Shown here: piece after piece, positions 1 to 23,960 of the stretch | How the letters are laid out: each line of letters starts with the position of its first letter | How positions within the stretch are numbered: position 1 is the stretch's first letter | Source: Flavobacteriaceae bacterium UBA1903 | GTDB taxonomy: Bacteria > Bacteroidota > Bacteroidia > Flavobacteriales > Flavobacteriaceae | Assembly: GCA_002337605.1 (NCBI GenBank) | Contig: DDGL01000016.1 | Coordinates: 293,935 to 357,934 of the forward strand | Reading direction: 5' to 3' | DNA length: 64,000 nucleotides | The notes under the pieces: model-generated | What the model was told of the DNA's origin: nothing | Seen by the model: only the letters and a program-made list of their open reading frames with translations | Databases searched by the model: none | Position numbers and translations under genes: made by a program

Positions 1-1
1 A

Positions 2-205
2 CCAACTATCATAGAAGATAATCTTTTAAAGGCCCGGGTAACCAAAGGTGATCTTCGCTCAAAACTTAGGGAGGCAAATGTTCTCGATCTATCGCAAGTG
101 CGGGCTGTAGTTTTTGAAACCACGGGCGATGTCGTCGTATTGCACAGCAGTGATCAATCACAGAGTTTAGAACCTTGGTTATTAAAAGATGTCAAAAGAA
201 GCTAA
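2..205 (+). CDS. DUF421/YetF-family protein, C-terminal fragment (5' end outside window)
   Basis: Frame 2 translates to ...DLRSKLREANVLDLSQVRAVVFETTGDVVVL...KRS*, matching the YetF C-terminal pattern (LR..gv..l..V..avlEt.G.isv). Confidence 0.75.
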   Translation, partial: PTIIEDNLLKARVTKGDLRSKLREANVLDLSQVRAVVFETTGDVVVLHSSDQSQSLEPWLLKDVKRS

Positions 206-275
206 TGCATACTCTAAAGTTAGCATTGTTGAATTGCTGGCTACTGTGTTTGTGTAGGAAAAAGAAGATAGATCT

Positions 276-539
276 ATGGATACGACCAAAATAATAGGAA
301 TACTGGCAGGAGTTTTTACGACCGTTGCCGTTATTCCGCAGATTTACAAGGCGATCAAGACAAATAAAGTTGATGATATAAGCCCGGTATTTTTTAGCAT
401 TTTACTATTGGGTGTCGGACTCTGGACCGTCTATGGAATTTTAAAAACAGATTGGCCTATTATGGTGACGAATGGAATTTCGTTCATGTTGAATGCAACC
501 ATGTTGGGAATTTATATAACAAACAAGATAAAAAAATGA
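276..539 (+). CDS. SemiSWEET / PQ-loop sugar transporter
   Basis: 87 aa, three hydrophobic helices, 'IPQIYK' PQ motif, 'LWTVYG...WPIMVTN'. Confidence 0.85.
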   Translation: MDTTKIIGILAGVFTTVAVIPQIYKAIKTNKVDDISPVFFSILLLGVGLWTVYGILKTDWPIMVTNGISFMLNATMLGIYITNKIKK

Positions 540-1195
540 AAGCTATCGTTGAAAGTAAAGAAGATATTGAAGAATTAGTACGTGAATTTGTACTGGATGA
601 CCACCCCTGTGTCATGGCGCAGAGTGTCATTGCAGATGACAACGTAACCATTCAATCGTATGGTAGTATGGATAATTTTTGTCCAAATACCTTGATGAAA
701 GATTTAGAGATGTATGTAAATGACGTAGAGCAGGATTCTATGAAATTTCAGACTTTTATTGCTGTCTTTGACGATTCTCATTTTGAAACTGAAAAGGAAT
801 TTGAAAACTCACTTTGGAAACTACTATATACATTACACAGCATGGATACCCACGCTTGGGACGAGACAACAAATTCAGACCCTGCTTCACCAAAGTTTAG
901 TTATAGTTTGTTCGGCACCTCGTTCTATATCGTTGGGATGCATCCTAATTCTTCTCGCTGGGCAAGGTCATCTCCTTTTCCGATGATCGTGTTCAACTTA
1001 CATAGTCAGTTTGAACTGTTACGTAGCTCTGGACGGTATGGAAGGGTTCGTGATCTCATACGTAAAAGAGACAAGGCATATCAAGGCTCTGTTAATCCCA
1101 TGTTGGAAGATTTTGGTGAGAACAGCGAAGCCAGACAGTATAGCGGTAGAGCCGTAGAAGATGATTGGAAATGTCCCTATTTAACTAAAAAGTAA
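536..1195 (+). CDS. YqcI/YcgG family heme-dependent oxidase (GntA/DcsA/AglA-like guanidine N-hydroxylase family)
   Basis: 'HPCVMA', 'FSYSLFGTSFYIVGMHPNSSRWAR', 'FNLHSQF', 'EARQYSGR', 'WKCPY'; ATG at 536 overlaps upstream stop (ATGA), preferred over the 452 start. Confidence 0.8.
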   Translation: MKAIVESKEDIEELVREFVLDDHPCVMAQSVIADDNVTIQSYGSMDNFCPNTLMKDLEMYVNDVEQDSMKFQTFIAVFDDSHFETEKEFENSLWKLLYTLHSMDTHAWDETTNSDPASPKFSYSLFGTSFYIVGMHPNSSRWARSSPFPMIVFNLHSQFELLRSSGRYGRVRDLIRKRDKAYQGSVNPMLEDFGENSEARQYSGRAVEDDWKCPYLTKK

Positions 1196-1199
1196 TTTT

Positions 1200-1811
1200 A
1201 TGTATTGCCCGGAACATTATAGTAAACAGGATAAGAAATATCGGTACGATTTCCTTCAGCAATACCCCTTTGCTACCATGGTGCTTCAGGGTGAGTCAAT
1301 GCTGGCTACACATATTCCGGTACTTACCAAGGGCGGGCCAGAAGATTTCTATCTGTATTCCCATATCGCAAATAGCAATCCGCAGTATGCACACCTCGAG
1401 GACGGCACAGAAGCCCTATTTATTTTTCAGGGTCCGCATGCGTATATCTCGTCATCCTGGTATACCCATGAGGATATCAGTACATGGGATTATGCAGCGG
1501 TGCATATCAATGCAAAAATTTACAGACAGACCGCAGCCCAACTCGAAACATCATTACAGGAATTGGTTTATTTTTTTGAAAAGGATCAAGAGAAACCTAA
1601 CTATTATCACGACATACCACAGAAACTTATTCAAGAGCATTTTCCCAGAATTACCGGGTTTACCGCCAAGCCTACGAAAATACAGGCGATAGCCAAATAC
1701 CATCAAGATTTTGATGGTGAAAACGTAAAGAATATCTGCCGAAAGTTAAGTACAACTAACAACGCTATGGATGATCAAGTAGTAAAAAATATAAAAAAGG
1801 AACATGAATAA
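1200..1811 (+). CDS. paiB: PaiB family FMN/heme-binding split-barrel protein
   Basis: 'MYCP.HY', 'LATHIP', 'HIANSNPQ', 'GPHAYISSSWY', 'STWDYAAVH'. Confidence 0.8.
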   Translation: MYCPEHYSKQDKKYRYDFLQQYPFATMVLQGESMLATHIPVLTKGGPEDFYLYSHIANSNPQYAHLEDGTEALFIFQGPHAYISSSWYTHEDISTWDYAAVHINAKIYRQTAAQLETSLQELVYFFEKDQEKPNYYHDIPQKLIQEHFPRITGFTAKPTKIQAIAKYHQDFDGENVKNICRKLSTTNNAMDDQVVKNIKKEHE

Positions 1812-2388
1812 CGTAATTAAGCCACAAACAGGCACCGCATTTTATTTAACAAAAGGGCAAAAGTTAAAAATAATCGATGTCGAAGGACAACAGGTTAGTG
1901 ACATGGTTTTATTCAATGCAGAAGATACGAGAGAACGGATTTCTTCTGGCAAGACATTAGATTTTGAGGAATGCATACAGATAACTACCAATAATTTTTT
2001 GTGGAGTAACCGAAGCAACAAGTTGGCAGCGATAGAAGAAGATACCAACGGACGAAATGATTTTTTACTTGCGCCATGTTGTAAGCAAACCTTTGAAATT
2101 ATGTACGATCATAAAGGCTACCATCCAAGCTGTAAAGAAAATCTGGAAACGGCTCTAGCGCCTTTTGGTATTGAACCTGATGACATTCCTACTGCCTTTA
2201 ATGTGTTTATGAATGTTCAGTATGATAGCGACGGAAACCTGTCGGTTCTCCCACCCACTTCAAAAGCGGGGGATTACCTTATTATCCGGGCTGAAATGGA
2301 TCTTTTGGTAGGTCTTACAGCCTGCTCGGCAGAAGATAGCAACGGCGGCACCTTTAAGCCAATAGCCTATGAAATTATAAAAGTGTAA
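1804..2388 (+). CDS. DUF1989 / urea-carboxylase-associated (CgdAB-like) protein
   Basis: 'IIDVEGQQVSDM', 'NDFLLAPCC', 'HPSCKENL', 'AFNVFMNV', 'AEMDLLVGLTACS'. Confidence 0.85.
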   Translation: MNNVIKPQTGTAFYLTKGQKLKIIDVEGQQVSDMVLFNAEDTRERISSGKTLDFEECIQITTNNFLWSNRSNKLAAIEEDTNGRNDFLLAPCCKQTFEIMYDHKGYHPSCKENLETALAPFGIEPDDIPTAFNVFMNVQYDSDGNLSVLPPTSKAGDYLIIRAEMDLLVGLTACSAEDSNGGTFKPIAYEIIKV

Positions 2389-2394
2389 AAGAAT

Positions 2395-2967
2395 ATGGAA
2401 GCACTACATAGTTTTAAAGATTTCTTGAAGAAAAATAAGAAGGCATTCTACGGTGGGATAATCGCCACACTTTTTTTAGGGCTGGGTGTTTTTCTTTTGG
2501 GTAGTGTTTCGGGCTATGAGGCAAAAAAACTAATCACAAGTTCCCTTCCTGGACTCAACATGCTCTGTAATACTATTGTTTTAGCGTCTGCCACTATTTT
2601 GGCACTGTTACTCACCCTATTGGGAATAAGTACCGGAACAGAAAATAAATTAAAGAAAGCACATTACAAACAAGTGCTTAGTATTGCTACTTTTGATACC
2701 GTTTTGTTTGTGGGATCTTTGATCCTGTTTCAGCTATTCAATATTCCTATAACCGAAGCTGAAAATGTACCTACCACCTGGTTTGATGCAATTTATTGGG
2801 CCACATTGATATCATCTTCCATCCTTAGTGGGATGATGATCACTGTTATATTAATGCTCTATAAAACGGTGACGAACATTATTAATATTGTGGGGTTGGG
2901 GAAAGATCACTACTTAATTTCAGATGAGGAAATAGAGGAAGAAGAAAAAGAGTCAGGTACAGATTGA
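2395..2967 (+). CDS. Hypothetical integral membrane protein (about 4 TM)
   Basis: 190-aa ORF with four hydrophobic segments and an acidic tail. Confidence 0.6.
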   Translation: MEALHSFKDFLKKNKKAFYGGIIATLFLGLGVFLLGSVSGYEAKKLITSSLPGLNMLCNTIVLASATILALLLTLLGISTGTENKLKKAHYKQVLSIATFDTVLFVGSLILFQLFNIPITEAENVPTTWFDAIYWATLISSSILSGMMITVILMLYKTVTNIINIVGLGKDHYLISDEEIEEEEKESGTD

Positions 2968-2971
2968 TTTT

Positions 2972-3418
2972 TTACAACCACATTTTCAAAAAAGAATCGT
3001 AGAAACGTTCCATACCTATTGCTGCCATTCCAAAGATAATATGTGCCACGATAAGTTGAATATGGAACAAGCGGGTATGAGTTGGCGGATCGGTATTGGC
3101 AAGTTTGTAAAGTGCTTTCCACATCATAATTCCAATTCCTCCCAGCATACATCCAAAAATAATTCCCCATTGCACTGAGATTGAAACGTTCGTCACCGAA
3201 TACAATGCTATTAACATAATTAGGAATACTATTCCAGTGAGGTAGTGTACAAGCCAGCCCACCCAAGTTGGAAGCTCAACATTTAAAATCTTGCCTAATA
3301 GGTCGGCTAATAATTTGGGTTCCTTGAAATTTTCATTTAATAGGGTAGAGAATACATAACTAAACCCTGTCATGCAGGTGGTAGCAACAATCCAAGCAAG
3401 AAAGAGTGTAAAAAGCAT
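2972..3418 (-). CDS. Hypothetical integral membrane protein (about 4 TM)
   Basis: 148-aa hydrophobic ORF, 'GWLVHYLTGIVF', 'HIIFG'. Confidence 0.6.
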   Translation of the reverse strand: MLFTLFLAWIVATTCMTGFSYVFSTLLNENFKEPKLLADLLGKILNVELPTWVGWLVHYLTGIVFLIMLIALYSVTNVSISVQWGIIFGCMLGGIGIMMWKALYKLANTDPPTHTRLFHIQLIVAHIIFGMAAIGMERFYDSFLKMWL

Positions 3419-3601
3419 ACCTAACGTTACAATACTTTTTTGTGTTAGACTATCAATAAAACATAAAGATAATAAATAAAATTGGATACGATTTATAATA
3501 AAAACACACTAGTACAGTCAAAAAAGTCAGATCGGAAAGATGAGGCTTATATGAGTTAACTAACTGAATTTTAGTGCTGTCAATTATTTATAGTCTCTAA
3601 A

Positions 3602-3693
3602 CAACGGCTATGCAACGGCCCATTCACGGGCCGTTATTTAATTTCAACGGCGCCGTTGTCAATTTCCCAACGGGCCGTTTTTTGCTCCGTTGG
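3602..3693. repeat. Cluster of CAACGG/CCGTT direct and inverted repeats
   Basis: CAACGG at 3602, 3613, 3645, 3668; IR AACGGCCC-N6-GGGCCGTT (3614-3635); perfect palindrome CAACGGCGCCGTTG (3645-3658); AACGGGCCGTT (3669-3679). Confidence 0.85.
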
Positions 3694-3728
3694 ACTAGTG
3701 TGAATAAGATCAAAAACGTAGCGAAGCC

Positions 3729-3778
3729 TAACAAAGATTAACAAAGTCTTACAAAGAGTAACAAAGACTTACAGAGTC
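3729..3778 (+). repeat. Five tandem imperfect 10-bp repeats (T[AT]ACAAAGNN)
   Basis: TAACAAAGAT TAACAAAGTC TTACAAAGAG TAACAAAGAC TTACAGAGTC. Confidence 0.9.
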
Positions 3779-3829
3779 TAACACCCAAAGTTTAATTCTT
3801 GGCATATTGCAGACAATTCTACTGCACTA

Positions 3830-4006
3830 ATGAACGCCACTATTGTTTTTAGCATCGTACAGGCACTTCCCCAGGAAGAGCAACAGGCGTTGTTGAAAAT
3901 GATGAAGTCGGCCGTTGCACCTTCACGGTTGCAACCGCCACAAAAAGAAAAGTTGCTCACCCGGGCGGAGGCGGATGCTTTTATATTAAGGACGGTTTTT
4001 GGTTAA
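3830..4006 (+). CDS. Small hypothetical protein (58 aa), probably mobile-element associated
   Basis: Translated by hand: MNATIVFSIVQALPQEEQQALLKMMKSAVAPSRLQPPQKEKLLTRAEADAFILRTVFG*; GC-richer than flanks; a decayed second copy at 4810-4879 keeps codon-level similarity. Confidence 0.6.
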   Translation: MNATIVFSIVQALPQEEQQALLKMMKSAVAPSRLQPPQKEKLLTRAEADAFILRTVFG

Positions 4007-4164
4007 TTAATCTTCCTAATATCTTTAATCCATTTTCTTAATATGCTAAAAAAAGTATCTTTACCCATCATAAGACACGCTCGAAGTTGCAATTTTCTTG
4101 CTACTTCTAAATCTAATTTAGGTATTAGGCAATTGGCAAATATTTAATCTGAAACTTTATAATA

Positions 4165-4737
4165 ATGAAACGGAACTCTATCTTATTACTCTTGATTGTT
4201 GCAATTATTTTTAGTTGTAAAAACGATAGCACTAAAGAGAATGAATTGTTACAAAAAGAAAACGAACTCTTAAAAAAAGAAATAGAATTAGAGCGGAGAG
4301 AGAATTCAATGGATAAGAAAAAATCAAATAAATCAGAAATAGAATCTGAGGATATTAAATCAAAACCATCTAAACGAGATTTGTTATCATCTAATATATC
4401 AGAATTTAATATGCTTCACTCTAAAAGTGAAAATATAAAAGTTCAATACAATGGTGATTTTGTTATTGATATGGGGAGTGCTTCTTCTGGAAGGGTAGCT
4501 GGTAATCTAAAAAATTTGAATCTAAGTTTTGAACATCTACCTGAAAGACCAGGTTGTGCAGATGTTTGCCCAGAAATGATTGTGATTAAATTTGATTGTA
4601 AACTTAGAAAAAAATGTATTTCTGAACCTACGATGTCAGATTTTTATAGCGATTCTGGGACTATTTCAATTGCTAATATCTCTGTTGGCAAAAAGACCTT
4701 TGAACTACTAAATAGGATTAATAAAAATCTAAATTAA
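4165..4737 (+). CDS. Hypothetical lipoprotein
   Basis: Signal peptide with lipobox 'IIFSC', short coiled coil, Cys-rich C-terminal part. Confidence 0.7.
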   Translation: MKRNSILLLLIVAIIFSCKNDSTKENELLQKENELLKKEIELERRENSMDKKKSNKSEIESEDIKSKPSKRDLLSSNISEFNMLHSKSENIKVQYNGDFVIDMGSASSGRVAGNLKNLNLSFEHLPERPGCADVCPEMIVIKFDCKLRKKCISEPTMSDFYSDSGTISIANISVGKKTFELLNRINKNLN

Positions 4738-4809
4738 AATAATGCAACGAAAGATTTTTTCTCTTAGTTACCGATAATTAAATTTTAAAAGCAACCGTAA
4801 CCGTTACAT

Positions 4810-4879
4810 TTACAACCAAAAGAAAAATTACTAACCCGAGCCGAAAGCGGATGCGTTTATTTTTAGGATCGTTTTTTAA
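4810..4879 (+). pseudogene. Frameshifted duplicate of the 3' end of the 3830-4006 ORF
   Basis: Reads LQPKEKLLTRAE(+1 nt)ADAFIFRIVF* versus LQPPQKEKLLTRAEADAFILRTVFG*. Confidence 0.75.
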
Positions 4880-4916
4880 CTATTAAATTCAATTATTCAT
4901 ATAAGAATTTAAAATT

Positions 4917-5642
4917 CTAACGCTCTACGTCAATATTTAAAATGGGATATAACGAAGAAATTAATTTATCCTCTATGAAGAAACGATTGATGGCATTTTC
5001 TTTACCAGGATAAAGTAAAAAGGAAATTTCTACATTCTCTTTTATTAAAGCTAAGGCATCCCTATTAAAAAGACGTTCCAAACCGATTCGCAATTGACTT
5101 ACAGTGTTTGGTTTTTTACCAAAGCCATATCTGCATTTCGTTAGTCTATTTTTGTTCTTGCATTCTGGCCATAGATGGCTAAGATGGTCATCTGGTTTGT
5201 TCTTGCTCATACTATCTTTCCAAATTGTATTACTATATTGGTTATCATTTTCGGGGTCTATATTGTATCGAAGGTGACCGTCTATTCGTTTTTTAATATT
5301 AGTGCTTTTTCCAACATATAAACAGATATATTCGTCTTTACTAGCTTTGTCTATCCATTCCTTTGTAAAAATCACTTTTAAGAAATGATTTGCCTTCTCC
5401 GAATTGTCGTGTGGACCTTTTAAATAATATTCGGTATTAGGGTTTAACAAGTGTTTTCGAAGCAAGCCATTGTTGTCATTCCACCAAAAAGCATAAATTC
5501 CTTGTTGTTTTAAATCATTAATAATAGGGTTAAGAGAACCGTTATAAATTTTTTCAATTGCATATTTATTTTGATCTAATAAAAGGTCATATGCACCTTC
5601 AATATCACTTAAAGAGAACCTATTTTCAATTCTATCTTTCAT
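4917..5642 (-). CDS. GIY-YIG-like nuclease
   Basis: 'GIYAFW' ... 'LYVGKSTNIKKRI..H' ... 'FIEDKLI...YPILN': GIY/YVG, Arg, Glu and Asn motifs in order. Confidence 0.6.
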   Translation of the reverse strand: MKDRIENRFSLSDIEGAYDLLLDQNKYAIEKIYNGSLNPIINDLKQQGIYAFWWNDNNGLLRKHLLNPNTEYYLKGPHDNSEKANHFLKVIFTKEWIDKASKDEYICLYVGKSTNIKKRIDGHLRYNIDPENDNQYSNTIWKDSMSKNKPDDHLSHLWPECKNKNRLTKCRYGFGKKPNTVSQLRIGLERLFNRDALALIKENVEISFLLYPGKENAINRFFIEDKLISSLYPILNIDVER

Positions 5643-7596
5643 AGGTTGAGTTTAAGATTTCAATCGTTAAATCCTCGTGAGCTTTTAGGTTTTCATCGTT
5701 CCAATCGTCAGCCTGCTCCCACATTAATTCCATTTTTAAACTTTCTAGCTTGTCATCAGGTCTGTGATAGTTCGCTTTCTTTGCTTTTGGTAAGTCATTA
5801 CTGAAACGGGAGTTTTTTTGTTGGCTTATTAGACAAAGATTACCGAATCGATCTATATTATCAAAAGGTGGTTTATCTCCATTTCTAGGCTGTTGAGGAA
5901 AAAAATGTTCTACTGAACTTCTAAAGCCAAATTGAAAATTTTTAGCTTTTTCGATTGCAACAAGATTTTCGTAATTTTCTGTCTCTTGTGTGGTATAATA
6001 CCAAATTAAATAGTCTAGCCTATTAAATATAAAATTTTTGGTCTGTGTGCCTAGACTCCAAATATGATTGCTCACAGATTTATTTTTTGGTTTAGAATTA
6101 TTTTCAAAAATGATTTCTTCATAGTCTAAATCGCCGTCAACCGATTGATTTCGATCAAAGTAAAAAGCATCATTTAACAGTTCTAAATATGTTATAAACT
6201 TATCTGCTTCGATTACTCCATTTTCTGAATTATTGTACAGGTGGTATAAAGTAGCATTAAACCAATGTTTATAGATTCTTGTTGGAAATGATACATGGAA
6301 CATAGATTGCAACATAATGATACGATTATTATCAGTATTGTTTTCATCATCGCTTCCAGCTCGTTCAAATGTATCTTTAAAGTAATGTGATTTTCCTTTT
6401 TGGAACTGATGGATTTGCTTCCTTAATATCCATTTGGTGTCCTGTCCCAAATCTAAATTTCGAATAACATATTTATCAAATAGAAATTTCATTTTGAGCA
6501 GACTATAGCAGAAATCCTTAGCAAACTTGGACGGGTCGTTCTTATCAATATAAACGTGCTCAAATTGTTTAAGTAATTGCTTGTCGTCTAGGGCAATATC
6601 TTTGTTGTTTTCTTGAATTTTTAAAACATGAAGTAAGAAATTAGGGAAGTTAATTACAGCCGTTAGTTGTTCCTCGTCTTGCTTGCCTTCAGGCTCTTCA
6701 AGGTGGACTATTTCAGTTGAATCTAAAATTTGACTAAGACTGGGCTTAGTCGATCCATGTTTTTCTTCTGTTACCTCTTGAGTACTTAAAAATGCATCTA
6801 GCAATTCATCGTAATCTTTTGGTATTTCGTTTCCATCATCTCCAAAGATTTTCTTTCGGGTATTTTTACTATTATTTTCTGTGTTCCTTGTAAAGAACAA
6901 CTGTATGTAACGATTCATATCACTTGCAGCTTCCCATACAGTATTGAATAGTTCCCGATCCTCCGGGTATTCTTTTAGAAAGCTCATTAGGCGTGATTTG
7001 AGAACTTCGTGCTTTTCAAGTTGTTCACCACGCACATTCATAATCTCAAAATAATGGTTGAGATTCGTGTCTGGGGGAACGGCAACTTTTAGAAGAAGCG
7101 TTTTATTTAAAAGGTAGTCTGTAAATTCCTGAGCTGTAATATTAAACTCTTCTAAATAATGACTTAGATTATCTTTAATAATTTTATAGGCAGCTTTAAT
7201 AGCTGGTTCATTTACATCATCAAGTTTTTTATAATAGACTGCTTGTAATGCGCTAATTGAATTGGGTCTGGAATCAAATAATAGAGTGTTAAAATCAAAA
7301 TTTAAACTATAAGACGATTCTTTACTGTGAGAAAGGTAGGCTAGTATGATATATAGCGTGGTCAATCTTTGCTGTCCGTCTATTACTTCTTCTTTTCCTT
7401 GAACTCCCTTATTAATAACTAACGTGCCTAAATAGTAGTTGTCGTTTTGATTGGCTTTTACCTGACTGCATAAGTCAGATAATAGCTGGGACACTTCAGT
7501 AAGTGTCCACGCGAATTCCCGTTGATAAATAGGAATGCTGTAATTTGCAACCTTAAAAATATCAGAAATACTTAACAGTGGTGGATTTTTGGACAT
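5632..7596 (-). CDS. GmrSD-like type IV restriction endonuclease (DUF262 + DUF1524 HNH)
   Basis: 'IPIYQREFAW', 'IDGQQRLTT', 'FEIMNVRG.QL'; C-terminal 'SVEHFFPQ', 'FGNLCLISQQKNSRFSN'. Confidence 0.85.
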   Translation of the reverse strand: MSKNPPLLSISDIFKVANYSIPIYQREFAWTLTEVSQLLSDLCSQVKANQNDNYYLGTLVINKGVQGKEEVIDGQQRLTTLYIILAYLSHSKESSYSLNFDFNTLLFDSRPNSISALQAVYYKKLDDVNEPAIKAAYKIIKDNLSHYLEEFNITAQEFTDYLLNKTLLLKVAVPPDTNLNHYFEIMNVRGEQLEKHEVLKSRLMSFLKEYPEDRELFNTVWEAASDMNRYIQLFFTRNTENNSKNTRKKIFGDDGNEIPKDYDELLDAFLSTQEVTEEKHGSTKPSLSQILDSTEIVHLEEPEGKQDEEQLTAVINFPNFLLHVLKIQENNKDIALDDKQLLKQFEHVYIDKNDPSKFAKDFCYSLLKMKFLFDKYVIRNLDLGQDTKWILRKQIHQFQKGKSHYFKDTFERAGSDDENNTDNNRIIMLQSMFHVSFPTRIYKHWFNATLYHLYNNSENGVIEADKFITYLELLNDAFYFDRNQSVDGDLDYEEIIFENNSKPKNKSVSNHIWSLGTQTKNFIFNRLDYLIWYYTTQETENYENLVAIEKAKNFQFGFRSSVEHFFPQQPRNGDKPPFDNIDRFGNLCLISQQKNSRFSNDLPKAKKANYHRPDDKLESLKMELMWEQADDWNDENLKAHEDLTIEILNSTYER

Positions 7597-23943: not shown

Positions 23944-23960
23944 CTCATAACCCGAAGGTC
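23944..23960 (+). other. tRNA-Met (CAT) 3' fragment, candidate att core
   Basis: CTCATAACCCGAAGGTC equals the anticodon loop, 3' anticodon stem and variable loop of initiator tRNA-Met, followed by degenerate CAGGTT; no 5' half, so not a tRNA gene. Confidence 0.65.

Follow-up and report, generated by a model that had tools for sequence, protein, structure and literature searches.

To our knowledge, six enzymes of the YqcI/YcgG family, which has more than 4,000 members, have been characterised, all of them in antibiotic or toxin pathways, and every one hydroxylates a guanidine nitrogen using NADPH, ferredoxin and ferredoxin reductase. In the biosynthesis of D-cycloserine, the family member DcsA acts with DcsB, which cleaves N-hydroxyarginine to hydroxyurea and ornithine. 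A comparable logic, in which a YqcI-family N-hydroxylase is followed by a metal hydrolase acting on an N-hydroxyguanidine, is proposed here for an operon at the start of a 64,000-nucleotide stretch of DNA (referred to here as the window) from a marine flavobacterium, Flavobacteriaceae bacterium UBA1903 (GenBank assembly GCA_002337605.1, contig DDGL01000016.1, positions 293,935–357,934 of the forward strand). The operon encodes predicted members of three enzyme families: a YqcI/YcgG-family thiolate-haem N-oxygenase, a haem protein of the PaiB family (PF04299, FMN_bind_2) and a DUF1989 zinc enzyme. In place of an arginase-fold second enzyme, as in the DcsA/DcsB system, there is the DUF1989 protein, and no biosynthetic genes lie downstream.

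N-hydroxylases are likewise encoded beside PaiB-family haem enzymes in the KtzI/KtzT, PipS, LnzB and NohD systems; the hydroxylase of KtzI/KtzT-type systems is a flavin monooxygenase, whereas here it would be the haem enzyme YqcI. All PaiB-family proteins characterised so far are haem-binding and have N-hydroxylamines as substrates or ligands (PMC12576811, PMC12603108). The DUF1989 domain, with its three zinc cysteines, is shared with CgdAB and with the core of trimethylamine N-oxide (TMAO) demethylase, two activities that both break a C–N/N–C unit beside an oxygen-bearing nitrogen or carbon substituent. Compared with CgdAB, the window protein is a single 194-residue subunit and not a heteromer, and it has no carboxylase partner. 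Although the enzyme families are known, the YqcI–DUF1989 module and its PaiB-bearing variant have not previously been described: a literature search found no paper linking YqcI with DUF1989 or with PaiB, and one on Bacillus subtilis ycgG/ycgI returned only Escherichia coli name collisions.

The conserved unit is the YqcI–DUF1989 pair, and not the YqcI–PaiB–DUF1989 trio that an initial annotation of this DNA had treated as one. Screening of the window's genome and 60 relatives placed full-length YqcI and this DUF1989 clade in one identical set of 11 genomes, side by side in every case (Fisher p = 2e-12). Across 80 named loci from Flavobacteriales, DUF1989 lies downstream of YqcI on the same strand in 74; in Christiangramia loci without DUF1989, YqcI is directly followed by a 190-residue membrane protein referred to here as TM190. 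An even sample of 401 genomes from 302 genera of the family has YqcI in 49 genomes and 36 genera, a patchy, accessory trait, and a separate sample of 401 genomes from the phylum has a PF08892 gene of any kind in only 7, all of them Flavobacteriales. The YqcI gene is reduced to a 49-residue stub behind the gene of a SemiSWEET transporter in one congener (L013, G007) and is split into two open reading frames in another genus (L010/L014, G014).

The pair recurs far from the Flavobacteriales. Stepping out from a Chryseobacterium-type homologue, a bicistronic and often overlapping YqcI–DUF1989 pair was found in Mucilaginibacter, Ferruginibacter and a third Bacteroidota genome, in unrelated surroundings. 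When the two window proteins were concatenated and used as a query, about 30 natural fusion proteins of 390–560 residues were found, in which PF08892 precedes PF09347, one of them from the myxobacterium Nannocystis. The fusion genes translate as called, and their linkers range from almost none to about 50 residues. Kept in all 19 of the fusions examined are Cys25 of the YqcI half, and D33 and all three zinc cysteines of the DUF1989 half; R144 of YqcI is kept in 18. Seeding a metagenome scan with the YqcI halves of the fusions gave 80 loci with GC contents of 0.36–0.75, 70 of which have enough flanking DNA. DUF1989 is within about 1.6 kb of YqcI in 68 of these 70 (immediately downstream in 51, no more than about 1.6 kb away on the same strand in 15, and divergent within 0.3 kb in 2), with none in the other 2, and no further gene family recurs around the pair in this set. 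As far as gene sequence can tell, obligatory pairing and fusion show YqcI and DUF1989 to be functionally inseparable, and the pair, sometimes fused, is an ancient unit found across very diverse bacteria. For the characterised YqcI enzymes no such pairing has been reported and, unlike them, the window YqcI lies outside any natural-product cluster.

Placed between YqcI and DUF1989 in about 40–47% of Flavobacteriaceae clusters is PaiB, which is a lineage-specific but dedicated, clade-specific third partner. Two classes of PaiB homologue can be told apart in the family: a cluster clade, 44–62% identical to the window PaiB, and a housekeeping paralogue, at most 38% identical, which is also encoded in the window's genome (contig C14), is present in 29 of 61 relatives whether or not they have YqcI and has none of these cluster neighbours. 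Cluster-clade PaiB occurs in 24 of the 401 family genomes, 23 of which also carry YqcI (Fisher p = 9e-23), equivalent to 47% of the 49 YqcI-bearing genomes. Of 23 loci, 19 have it immediately behind YqcI and the other four beside YetF and/or TM190; in some genomes it is 4 kb away, next to both. The initial annotation had allowed for a sporadic PaiB: the gene is indeed facultative, but its placement is not random, a separate clade being found almost only in the cluster. Beyond flavobacteria-like DNA, the pair was never found with PaiB: the gene is missing from all 6 annotated contexts, and the single PaiB-bearing case among the 70 metagenome loci has a GC content of 0.40.

On a tree of concatenated YqcI and DUF1989 from 69 loci, the PaiB state changes 7 times, against a mean of 23 with shuffled labels. 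Within a 15-row clade of this tree, PaiB is present only in the window and its 94%-identical relative, which indicates that the window's lineage gained it independently, in the same slot, within an otherwise PaiB-free clade. In the next relative (G008, 83% identity), the place of PaiB is taken by a 46-bp spacer with no recognisable PaiB remnant. In Gillisia limnaea, an 86-residue PaiB relic occupies the canonical slot (L054 6524–6784) and a full PaiB gene lies 2 kb upstream.

The window YqcI is only 21–22% identical to AglA, yet it shares with AglA, GntA, ChmN, DcsA, AmbT and Mhr24 the Pfam family, the unique 'sandwich' fold, the [HF]PC cysteine thiolate and the arginines that anchor the haem propionates. 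Cys25, within the HPC motif, is invariant in 77–80 homologues and in the 19 fusions, and is the predicted haem thiolate ligand, the counterpart of AglA Cys44 (PMC12866846) and ChmN Cys47 (bioRxiv 10.1101/2024.01.24.577118). The propionates of AglA are anchored by R166, K196 and R200 (PMC12866846). Aligned with R166 and R200 are R144 and R176, both invariant in homologues and predicted to have the same role; the counterpart of K196 is D173, which is not conserved. Also invariant are N154, H156 and F159 of an FNLHxQFE motif, of which F159 aligns with AglA F182, the residue that clamps the arginine side chain (PMC12866846), N154 aligns with Q177, and H156 takes the place of the gating Arg179. In a search of the PDB, the AlphaFold model of YqcI (mean predicted local distance difference test score of 82.6, predicted template-modelling score of 0.83) matches only five entries, all of AglA, with template-modelling scores of 0.79–0.82 over the full length; the next match has E = 0.6.

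Via the NF041366 equivalog model, NCBI gives YqcI proteins of flavobacteria, Chitinophaga-type bacteria and myxobacteria, hundreds in all (P0007, P0009, P0016 and others), the name 'guanitoxin biosynthesis heme-dependent pre-guanitoxin N-hydroxylase GntA', with no other gnt gene nearby. The model is too broad. Membership of a guanitoxin pathway was rejected for the window YqcI, as no other gnt-type gene was found among its neighbours or in the 80 + 80 related loci.

The DUF1989 protein can be aligned with 3ORU, a structure of the same family (84 bits), and with the core of TMAO demethylase (9Q59). Its C92, C110 and C174 align with the zinc-site residues C285, C301 and C365 of the demethylase and are predicted to form a 3-Cys zinc site; in the demethylase, zinc bound in this way contacts the N-oxide oxygen of the substrate (PMC13619132). 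The three cysteines are invariant in 71 homologues, as are D33, which aligns with demethylase D220, H107 and D178. TMAO demethylase activity itself was rejected for this protein, as it is only 194 residues long, has no C-terminal tetrahydrofolate-binding (GCV_T) domain and carries Ala176 in place of the substrate-binding D367. The initial annotation had named CgdAB as characterised DUF1989 members, which the window protein does not resemble in make-up. CgdAB consists of two paralogous subunits encoded beside a urea/guanidine carboxylase, often downstream of a guanidine riboswitch. The UAAP2 and UAAP1 models match it (E = 1e-32 and 3e-28), but with scores of 112.7 and 98.6 bits it stays far below their cut-offs of 284.7 and 205.95 bits; the window's genome has one DUF1989 gene only, and neither a carboxylase nor an allophanate hydrolase gene is adjacent, nor is a guanidine riboswitch.

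The solved proteins nearest to the window PaiB are Geobacillus PaiB (2OL5/9VYC, 81 bits), which binds haem and makes no piperazate (PMC12603108), and NohD (67 bits); the piperazate synthases are more distant (43–51 bits). NohD and LnzB have an axial histidine, a Thr/Lys dyad and a propionate-binding asparagine (PMC12576811, PMC12603108). In the window protein, H55, T95 and K166 align with NohD H57, T98 and K167, and N60 aligns with LnzB N77, so that H55 is the probable axial haem ligand, T95 and K166 the putative catalytic dyad and N60 the candidate propionate asparagine. Across 32 clade members, H55, T95, K166 and Ile93 never vary, and N60 is retained in at least 85%. A PaiB devoid of its haem-ligand residues, a prospect held out by the initial annotation, is therefore not what the operon encodes.

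Ile93 occupies the 'AS2' position, which must be Ala for N–N ring closure (Ala105 in PipS) and is Val in most PF04299 proteins, including NohD, where Val96 blocks closure (PMC12576811). With Ile at this position, a NohD-like active site, and PaiB and NohD as the nearest solved relatives, formation of an N–N bond by the window PaiB is unlikely, and identity as a piperazate synthase of the KtzT, PipS or LnzB type was rejected. The catalytic set and the bulky AS2 residue fit a dehydratase of the NohD type, with which similarity is low (67 bits). Neither a flavin ornithine N5-hydroxylase nor a non-ribosomal peptide synthetase (NRPS) was found beside PaiB in the window or in related loci.

We propose, with a probability of about one half, that YqcI and DUF1989 form a two-enzyme module of N-hydroxylation and zinc-assisted cleavage, to which PaiB adds disposal of an N-hydroxylated intermediate. 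By analogy with characterised family members, YqcI would N-hydroxylate a guanidino-type (arginine-like) nitrogen in an O2-dependent reaction and hand its product to DUF1989. This enzyme would bind the N–O oxygen, or a neighbouring heteroatom, at the 3-Cys zinc and cleave, deiminate, hydrolyse or rearrange the activated C–N unit, a step that we liken to those of CgdAB, which deiminates carboxylation-activated guanidine, and TMAO demethylase, with zinc on its N-oxide oxygen. PaiB would then dehydrate or otherwise dispose of an N-hydroxylamine arising from the pair, most probably to an imine and ammonia without an N–N bond, and SemiSWEET and TM190 may plausibly move the substrate or product. Of the fates that the initial annotation had considered for a hydroxylated guanidino compound, cleavage or deimination remains the most economical, and N–N coupling is disfavoured by Ile93 and by the kinship of the protein with NohD and PaiB.

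Several observations weigh against this proposal. The substrate could be other than a guanidine. No arginine- or guanidine-specific transporter is encoded at the operon, and no Rfam element, including the guanidine riboswitch, was found in window positions 1–6000 even at E ≤ 1. The operon contains no ferredoxin or reductase gene to serve a haem oxygenase. With Ala176 for D367, the active site of DUF1989 differs from that of TMAO demethylase, and its cleavage chemistry is proposed by analogy only. About half of the clusters do without PaiB, which is also missing beyond flavobacteria-like DNA. In addition, 8 loci (L059, L070, L074, L078, L085, L090, L091 and L094) have a co-directional LigD gene (primase–polymerase and ligase domains) inserted between PaiB and DUF1989, and membership of the operon therefore reflects co-regulation in part and not a strict pathway.

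The module could be part of an O2-dependent route that dismantles an arginine-type guanidine via N-hydroxylated intermediates, a narrower reading that we regard as rather improbable. YqcI would, for example, convert arginine to N-delta-hydroxyarginine, DUF1989 would split this into N5-hydroxyornithine and a urea-type fragment, and PaiB would turn N5-hydroxyornithine into glutamate semialdehyde and ammonia. There are precedents for the outer steps: ChmN makes N-delta-hydroxyarginine from arginine, supplying N-oxygenated arginine for N-nitrosation (bioRxiv 10.1101/2024.01.24.577118), and N5-hydroxyornithine is the in vitro substrate of NohD. In a variant of this route, the pair would release hydroxylamine or an HNO/NO-type species as a stress signal independent of nitric oxide synthase, and PaiB would detoxify it.

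The LigD insertions, the copies of PaiB 4 kb from the pair, its lack in about half of the clusters and in each of the 6 non-flavobacterial contexts examined, and a housekeeping paralogue indifferent to YqcI would all suit a PaiB that is no pathway enzyme at all. It would instead be a co-regulated haem protein using the same promoter, like the stress genes nearby, for example a haem buffer, a stress protein or an electron carrier for YqcI, which needs an electron donor that the operon does not encode, and only YqcI and DUF1989 would act together. We consider this unlikely, given that the cluster clade is almost exclusive to YqcI-bearing genomes, that it retains a complete catalytic set for N-hydroxylamine chemistry, that the window's lineage appears to have re-acquired it in exactly the same slot, and that N-hydroxylamines are the ligands or substrates of all the characterised PaiB-family proteins.

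Equally doubtful is a biosynthetic role, in which the module would make a small diffusible N–O or N–N compound (hydroxyurea, hydroxylamine, an HNO/NO donor or a hydrazine-type product) as a stress signal, protectant or antimicrobial, with PaiB shaping the final product and SemiSWEET, or LysE elsewhere, exporting it. Transporters are indeed coupled to the module: SemiSWEET overlaps YqcI here, and a LysE exporter gene is separated by a single gene from an upstream fusion gene, under a LysR regulator. The general-stress neighbours KatE, DUF892, DUF2383, Ku/LigD, photolyase and SDR would suit such a compound, and both hydroxyurea from DcsA and DcsB and the N-oxygenated arginine of ChmN are precedents. 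SemiSWEETs, however, are uniporters and usually importers of neutral solutes, and no ligase, NRPS, methyltransferase or self-resistance genes are present. Many genomes have the pair as two genes on their own. The Ile93 of PaiB is, moreover, of the dehydratase type and not the Ala needed for N–N closure (PMC12576811).

That YqcI is the guanitoxin enzyme GntA, or DUF1989 the carboxyguanidine deiminase subunit of a guanidine carboxylase pathway, or both, is very improbable despite the NF041366 score (273.6 bits against a cut-off of 145), the NCBI names and the UAAP matches, as YqcI is spread over non-toxic soil and marine bacteria, always with DUF1989, and CgdAB needs two paralogues.

The operon and its flanking genes are listed in Table 1. 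The initial annotation had described three tightly coupled genes behind a SemiSWEET gene, and both the 4-bp gap between YqcI and PaiB and the 8-nt overlap of PaiB with DUF1989 are exact; its gene list was incomplete, lacking TM190, which begins 6 bp after DUF1989, and the 3′ end of YetF. The stop codon of SemiSWEET overlaps the start codon of YqcI by 4 nt (ATGA). In a search of Pfam and NCBIfam hidden Markov models, the SemiSWEET, YqcI, PaiB and DUF1989 proteins all score above the curated cut-offs (27 bits for PF08892, 145 for NF041366, 22.4 for PF04299, 27 for PF09347 and 80 for NF037968), which bears out the three family assignments made earlier, and the adjacent DNA is, as had been noted, free of amino-acid tailoring and toxin genes, and it also has no NRPS genes. 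The window SemiSWEET fits a single PQ-loop/MtN3 repeat of about 85 residues, and TM190 has no Pfam or NCBIfam match. The arrangement is not due to chance: dozens of Flavobacteriaceae genomes share this gene order, with protein identities of 45–95%. YetF is probably the first gene of the transcription unit.

Table 1. Genes of the YqcI–PaiB–DUF1989 operon and its immediate flanks, in window coordinates.
Feature	Position	Strand	Model match or remark
3′ end of YetF/DUF421 membrane-protein gene	2–205	+	PF04239 38.5 bits; full gene at L095 9598–10140
SemiSWEET (PQ-loop) transporter, 87 residues	276–539	+	NF037968 88.2 bits; PF03083
YqcI/YcgG-family thiolate-haem N-oxygenase (predicted), 219 residues	536–1195	+	PF08892 199.7 bits; NF041366 273.6 bits
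PaiB-family (PF04299, FMN_bind_2) haem protein (predicted), 203 residues	1200–1811	+	PF04299 135.9 bits
DUF1989 zinc enzyme (predicted), 194 residues	1804–2388	+	PF09347 187.9 bits
TM190 membrane protein, 190 residues, four-helix, no family	2395–2967	+	Last gene of the unit
DUF2938-like membrane protein, convergent	2972–3418	−	PF11158 21.2 bits, under the cut-off of 31.4

The GC content of the operon (0.38–0.40) equals the genome mean of 0.386, and an AT-rich defence island begins only near window position 3600, 3′ of the operon. A complete tRNA-Met gene followed by a tyrosine integrase gene lies at L095 5924–7355, about 3.9–2.6 kb before the window begins; 17 bp of this tRNA, from the anticodon loop to the variable loop (CTCATAACCCGAAGGTC), recur at window positions 23944–23960. 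The operon lies inside the resulting bracket of about 28 kb, although its base composition is that of the genome and, in relatives that have these genes, neither an integrase nor a tRNA gene lies within 6 kb.

Membrane-protein genes are frequent companions of the cluster in the 80 flavobacterial loci: YetF adjoins it in 51, SemiSWEET, which is not obligatory, is directly upstream of YqcI in 28, TM190 is present in 21 and a DUF2938-like gene in 19. In a congener (G002), SemiSWEET and TM190 are direct neighbours, in that order, and lack any enzyme gene in between (G002:C3:308552–309488). On another contig, the window's genome has second copies of both, with 46% identity for SemiSWEET (G000:C10:28383–28616) and 78% for TM190 (C10:72499–73041). 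On one metagenome contig (L136 350–4522), genes for a LysR regulator, a YqcI–DUF1989 fusion, a 338-residue protein with a faint sulfotransferase match and a LysE-type exporter stand in a row, which hints at a basic, amino-acid-like substrate or product.

Neighbours of the cluster in Flavobacteriaceae include YetF, SDR, a KatE-type large catalase, DUF892, DUF2383, Ku, LigD and photolyases, and further MgtC, TspO, TerC, an HI0933 flavoprotein and AraC regulators. The setting is an accessory neighbourhood of general-stress or stationary-phase-type genes, and not a natural-product cluster. Apart from the loci with LigD inside the operon, Ku and LigD lie beside the cluster in several others. Directly upstream of YqcI and co-directional with it in about ten loci (L023, L026, L028, L038, L049, L051, L056, L060 and L084) is a block encoding a membrane GT2 protein of about 487 residues, a GT4 protein, a 351-residue protein of unknown function and a GT2-like protein.

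Located 86–144 nt upstream of YqcI in 25 of the 80 flavobacterial loci (among them L036, L050, L068–L070, L075, L079, L083, L086 and L090–L094) is a conserved bipartite element, TGTTAATCTT-N19/20-CTTCTTAAAC. At a stricter score threshold, 19 of 21 matches in those 25 loci are upstream of YqcI, and the element probably serves a dedicated regulator of that clade as its operator. No convincing copy was found in the window's genome, and a regulon inference from this element was discarded as uninformative on the window operon. Membership of an FNR-type low-oxygen or dormancy regulon was likewise rejected: TGAT-N4-ATCA boxes are at chance level in a 13.5-kb region, with none in the YetF promoter region. 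A scan for sigma-70 promoters and terminators, with a model that does not cover Bacteroidota promoters, gave nothing above shuffled background. A tandem direct repeat, CTTTGAAATC/CCTTGAAATC, lies at L095 9391–9410, within the 232-bp region upstream of YetF.

The operon joins three enzyme families in one translationally coupled unit and so turns three questions of function into one defined in vitro system. It provides a natural context for PaiB, a haem protein long misnamed a regulator, for NohD and for stand-alone DUF1989. Should N-hydroxylation followed by cleavage prove true, it would be a new, ATP-independent bacterial way of opening the very stable guanidinium group, and the mass annotation of these proteins as guanitoxin biosynthesis genes would be corrected. 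If the arginine-dismantling route were true, it would give the PaiB/NohD family and the stand-alone DUF1989 family their first physiological function.

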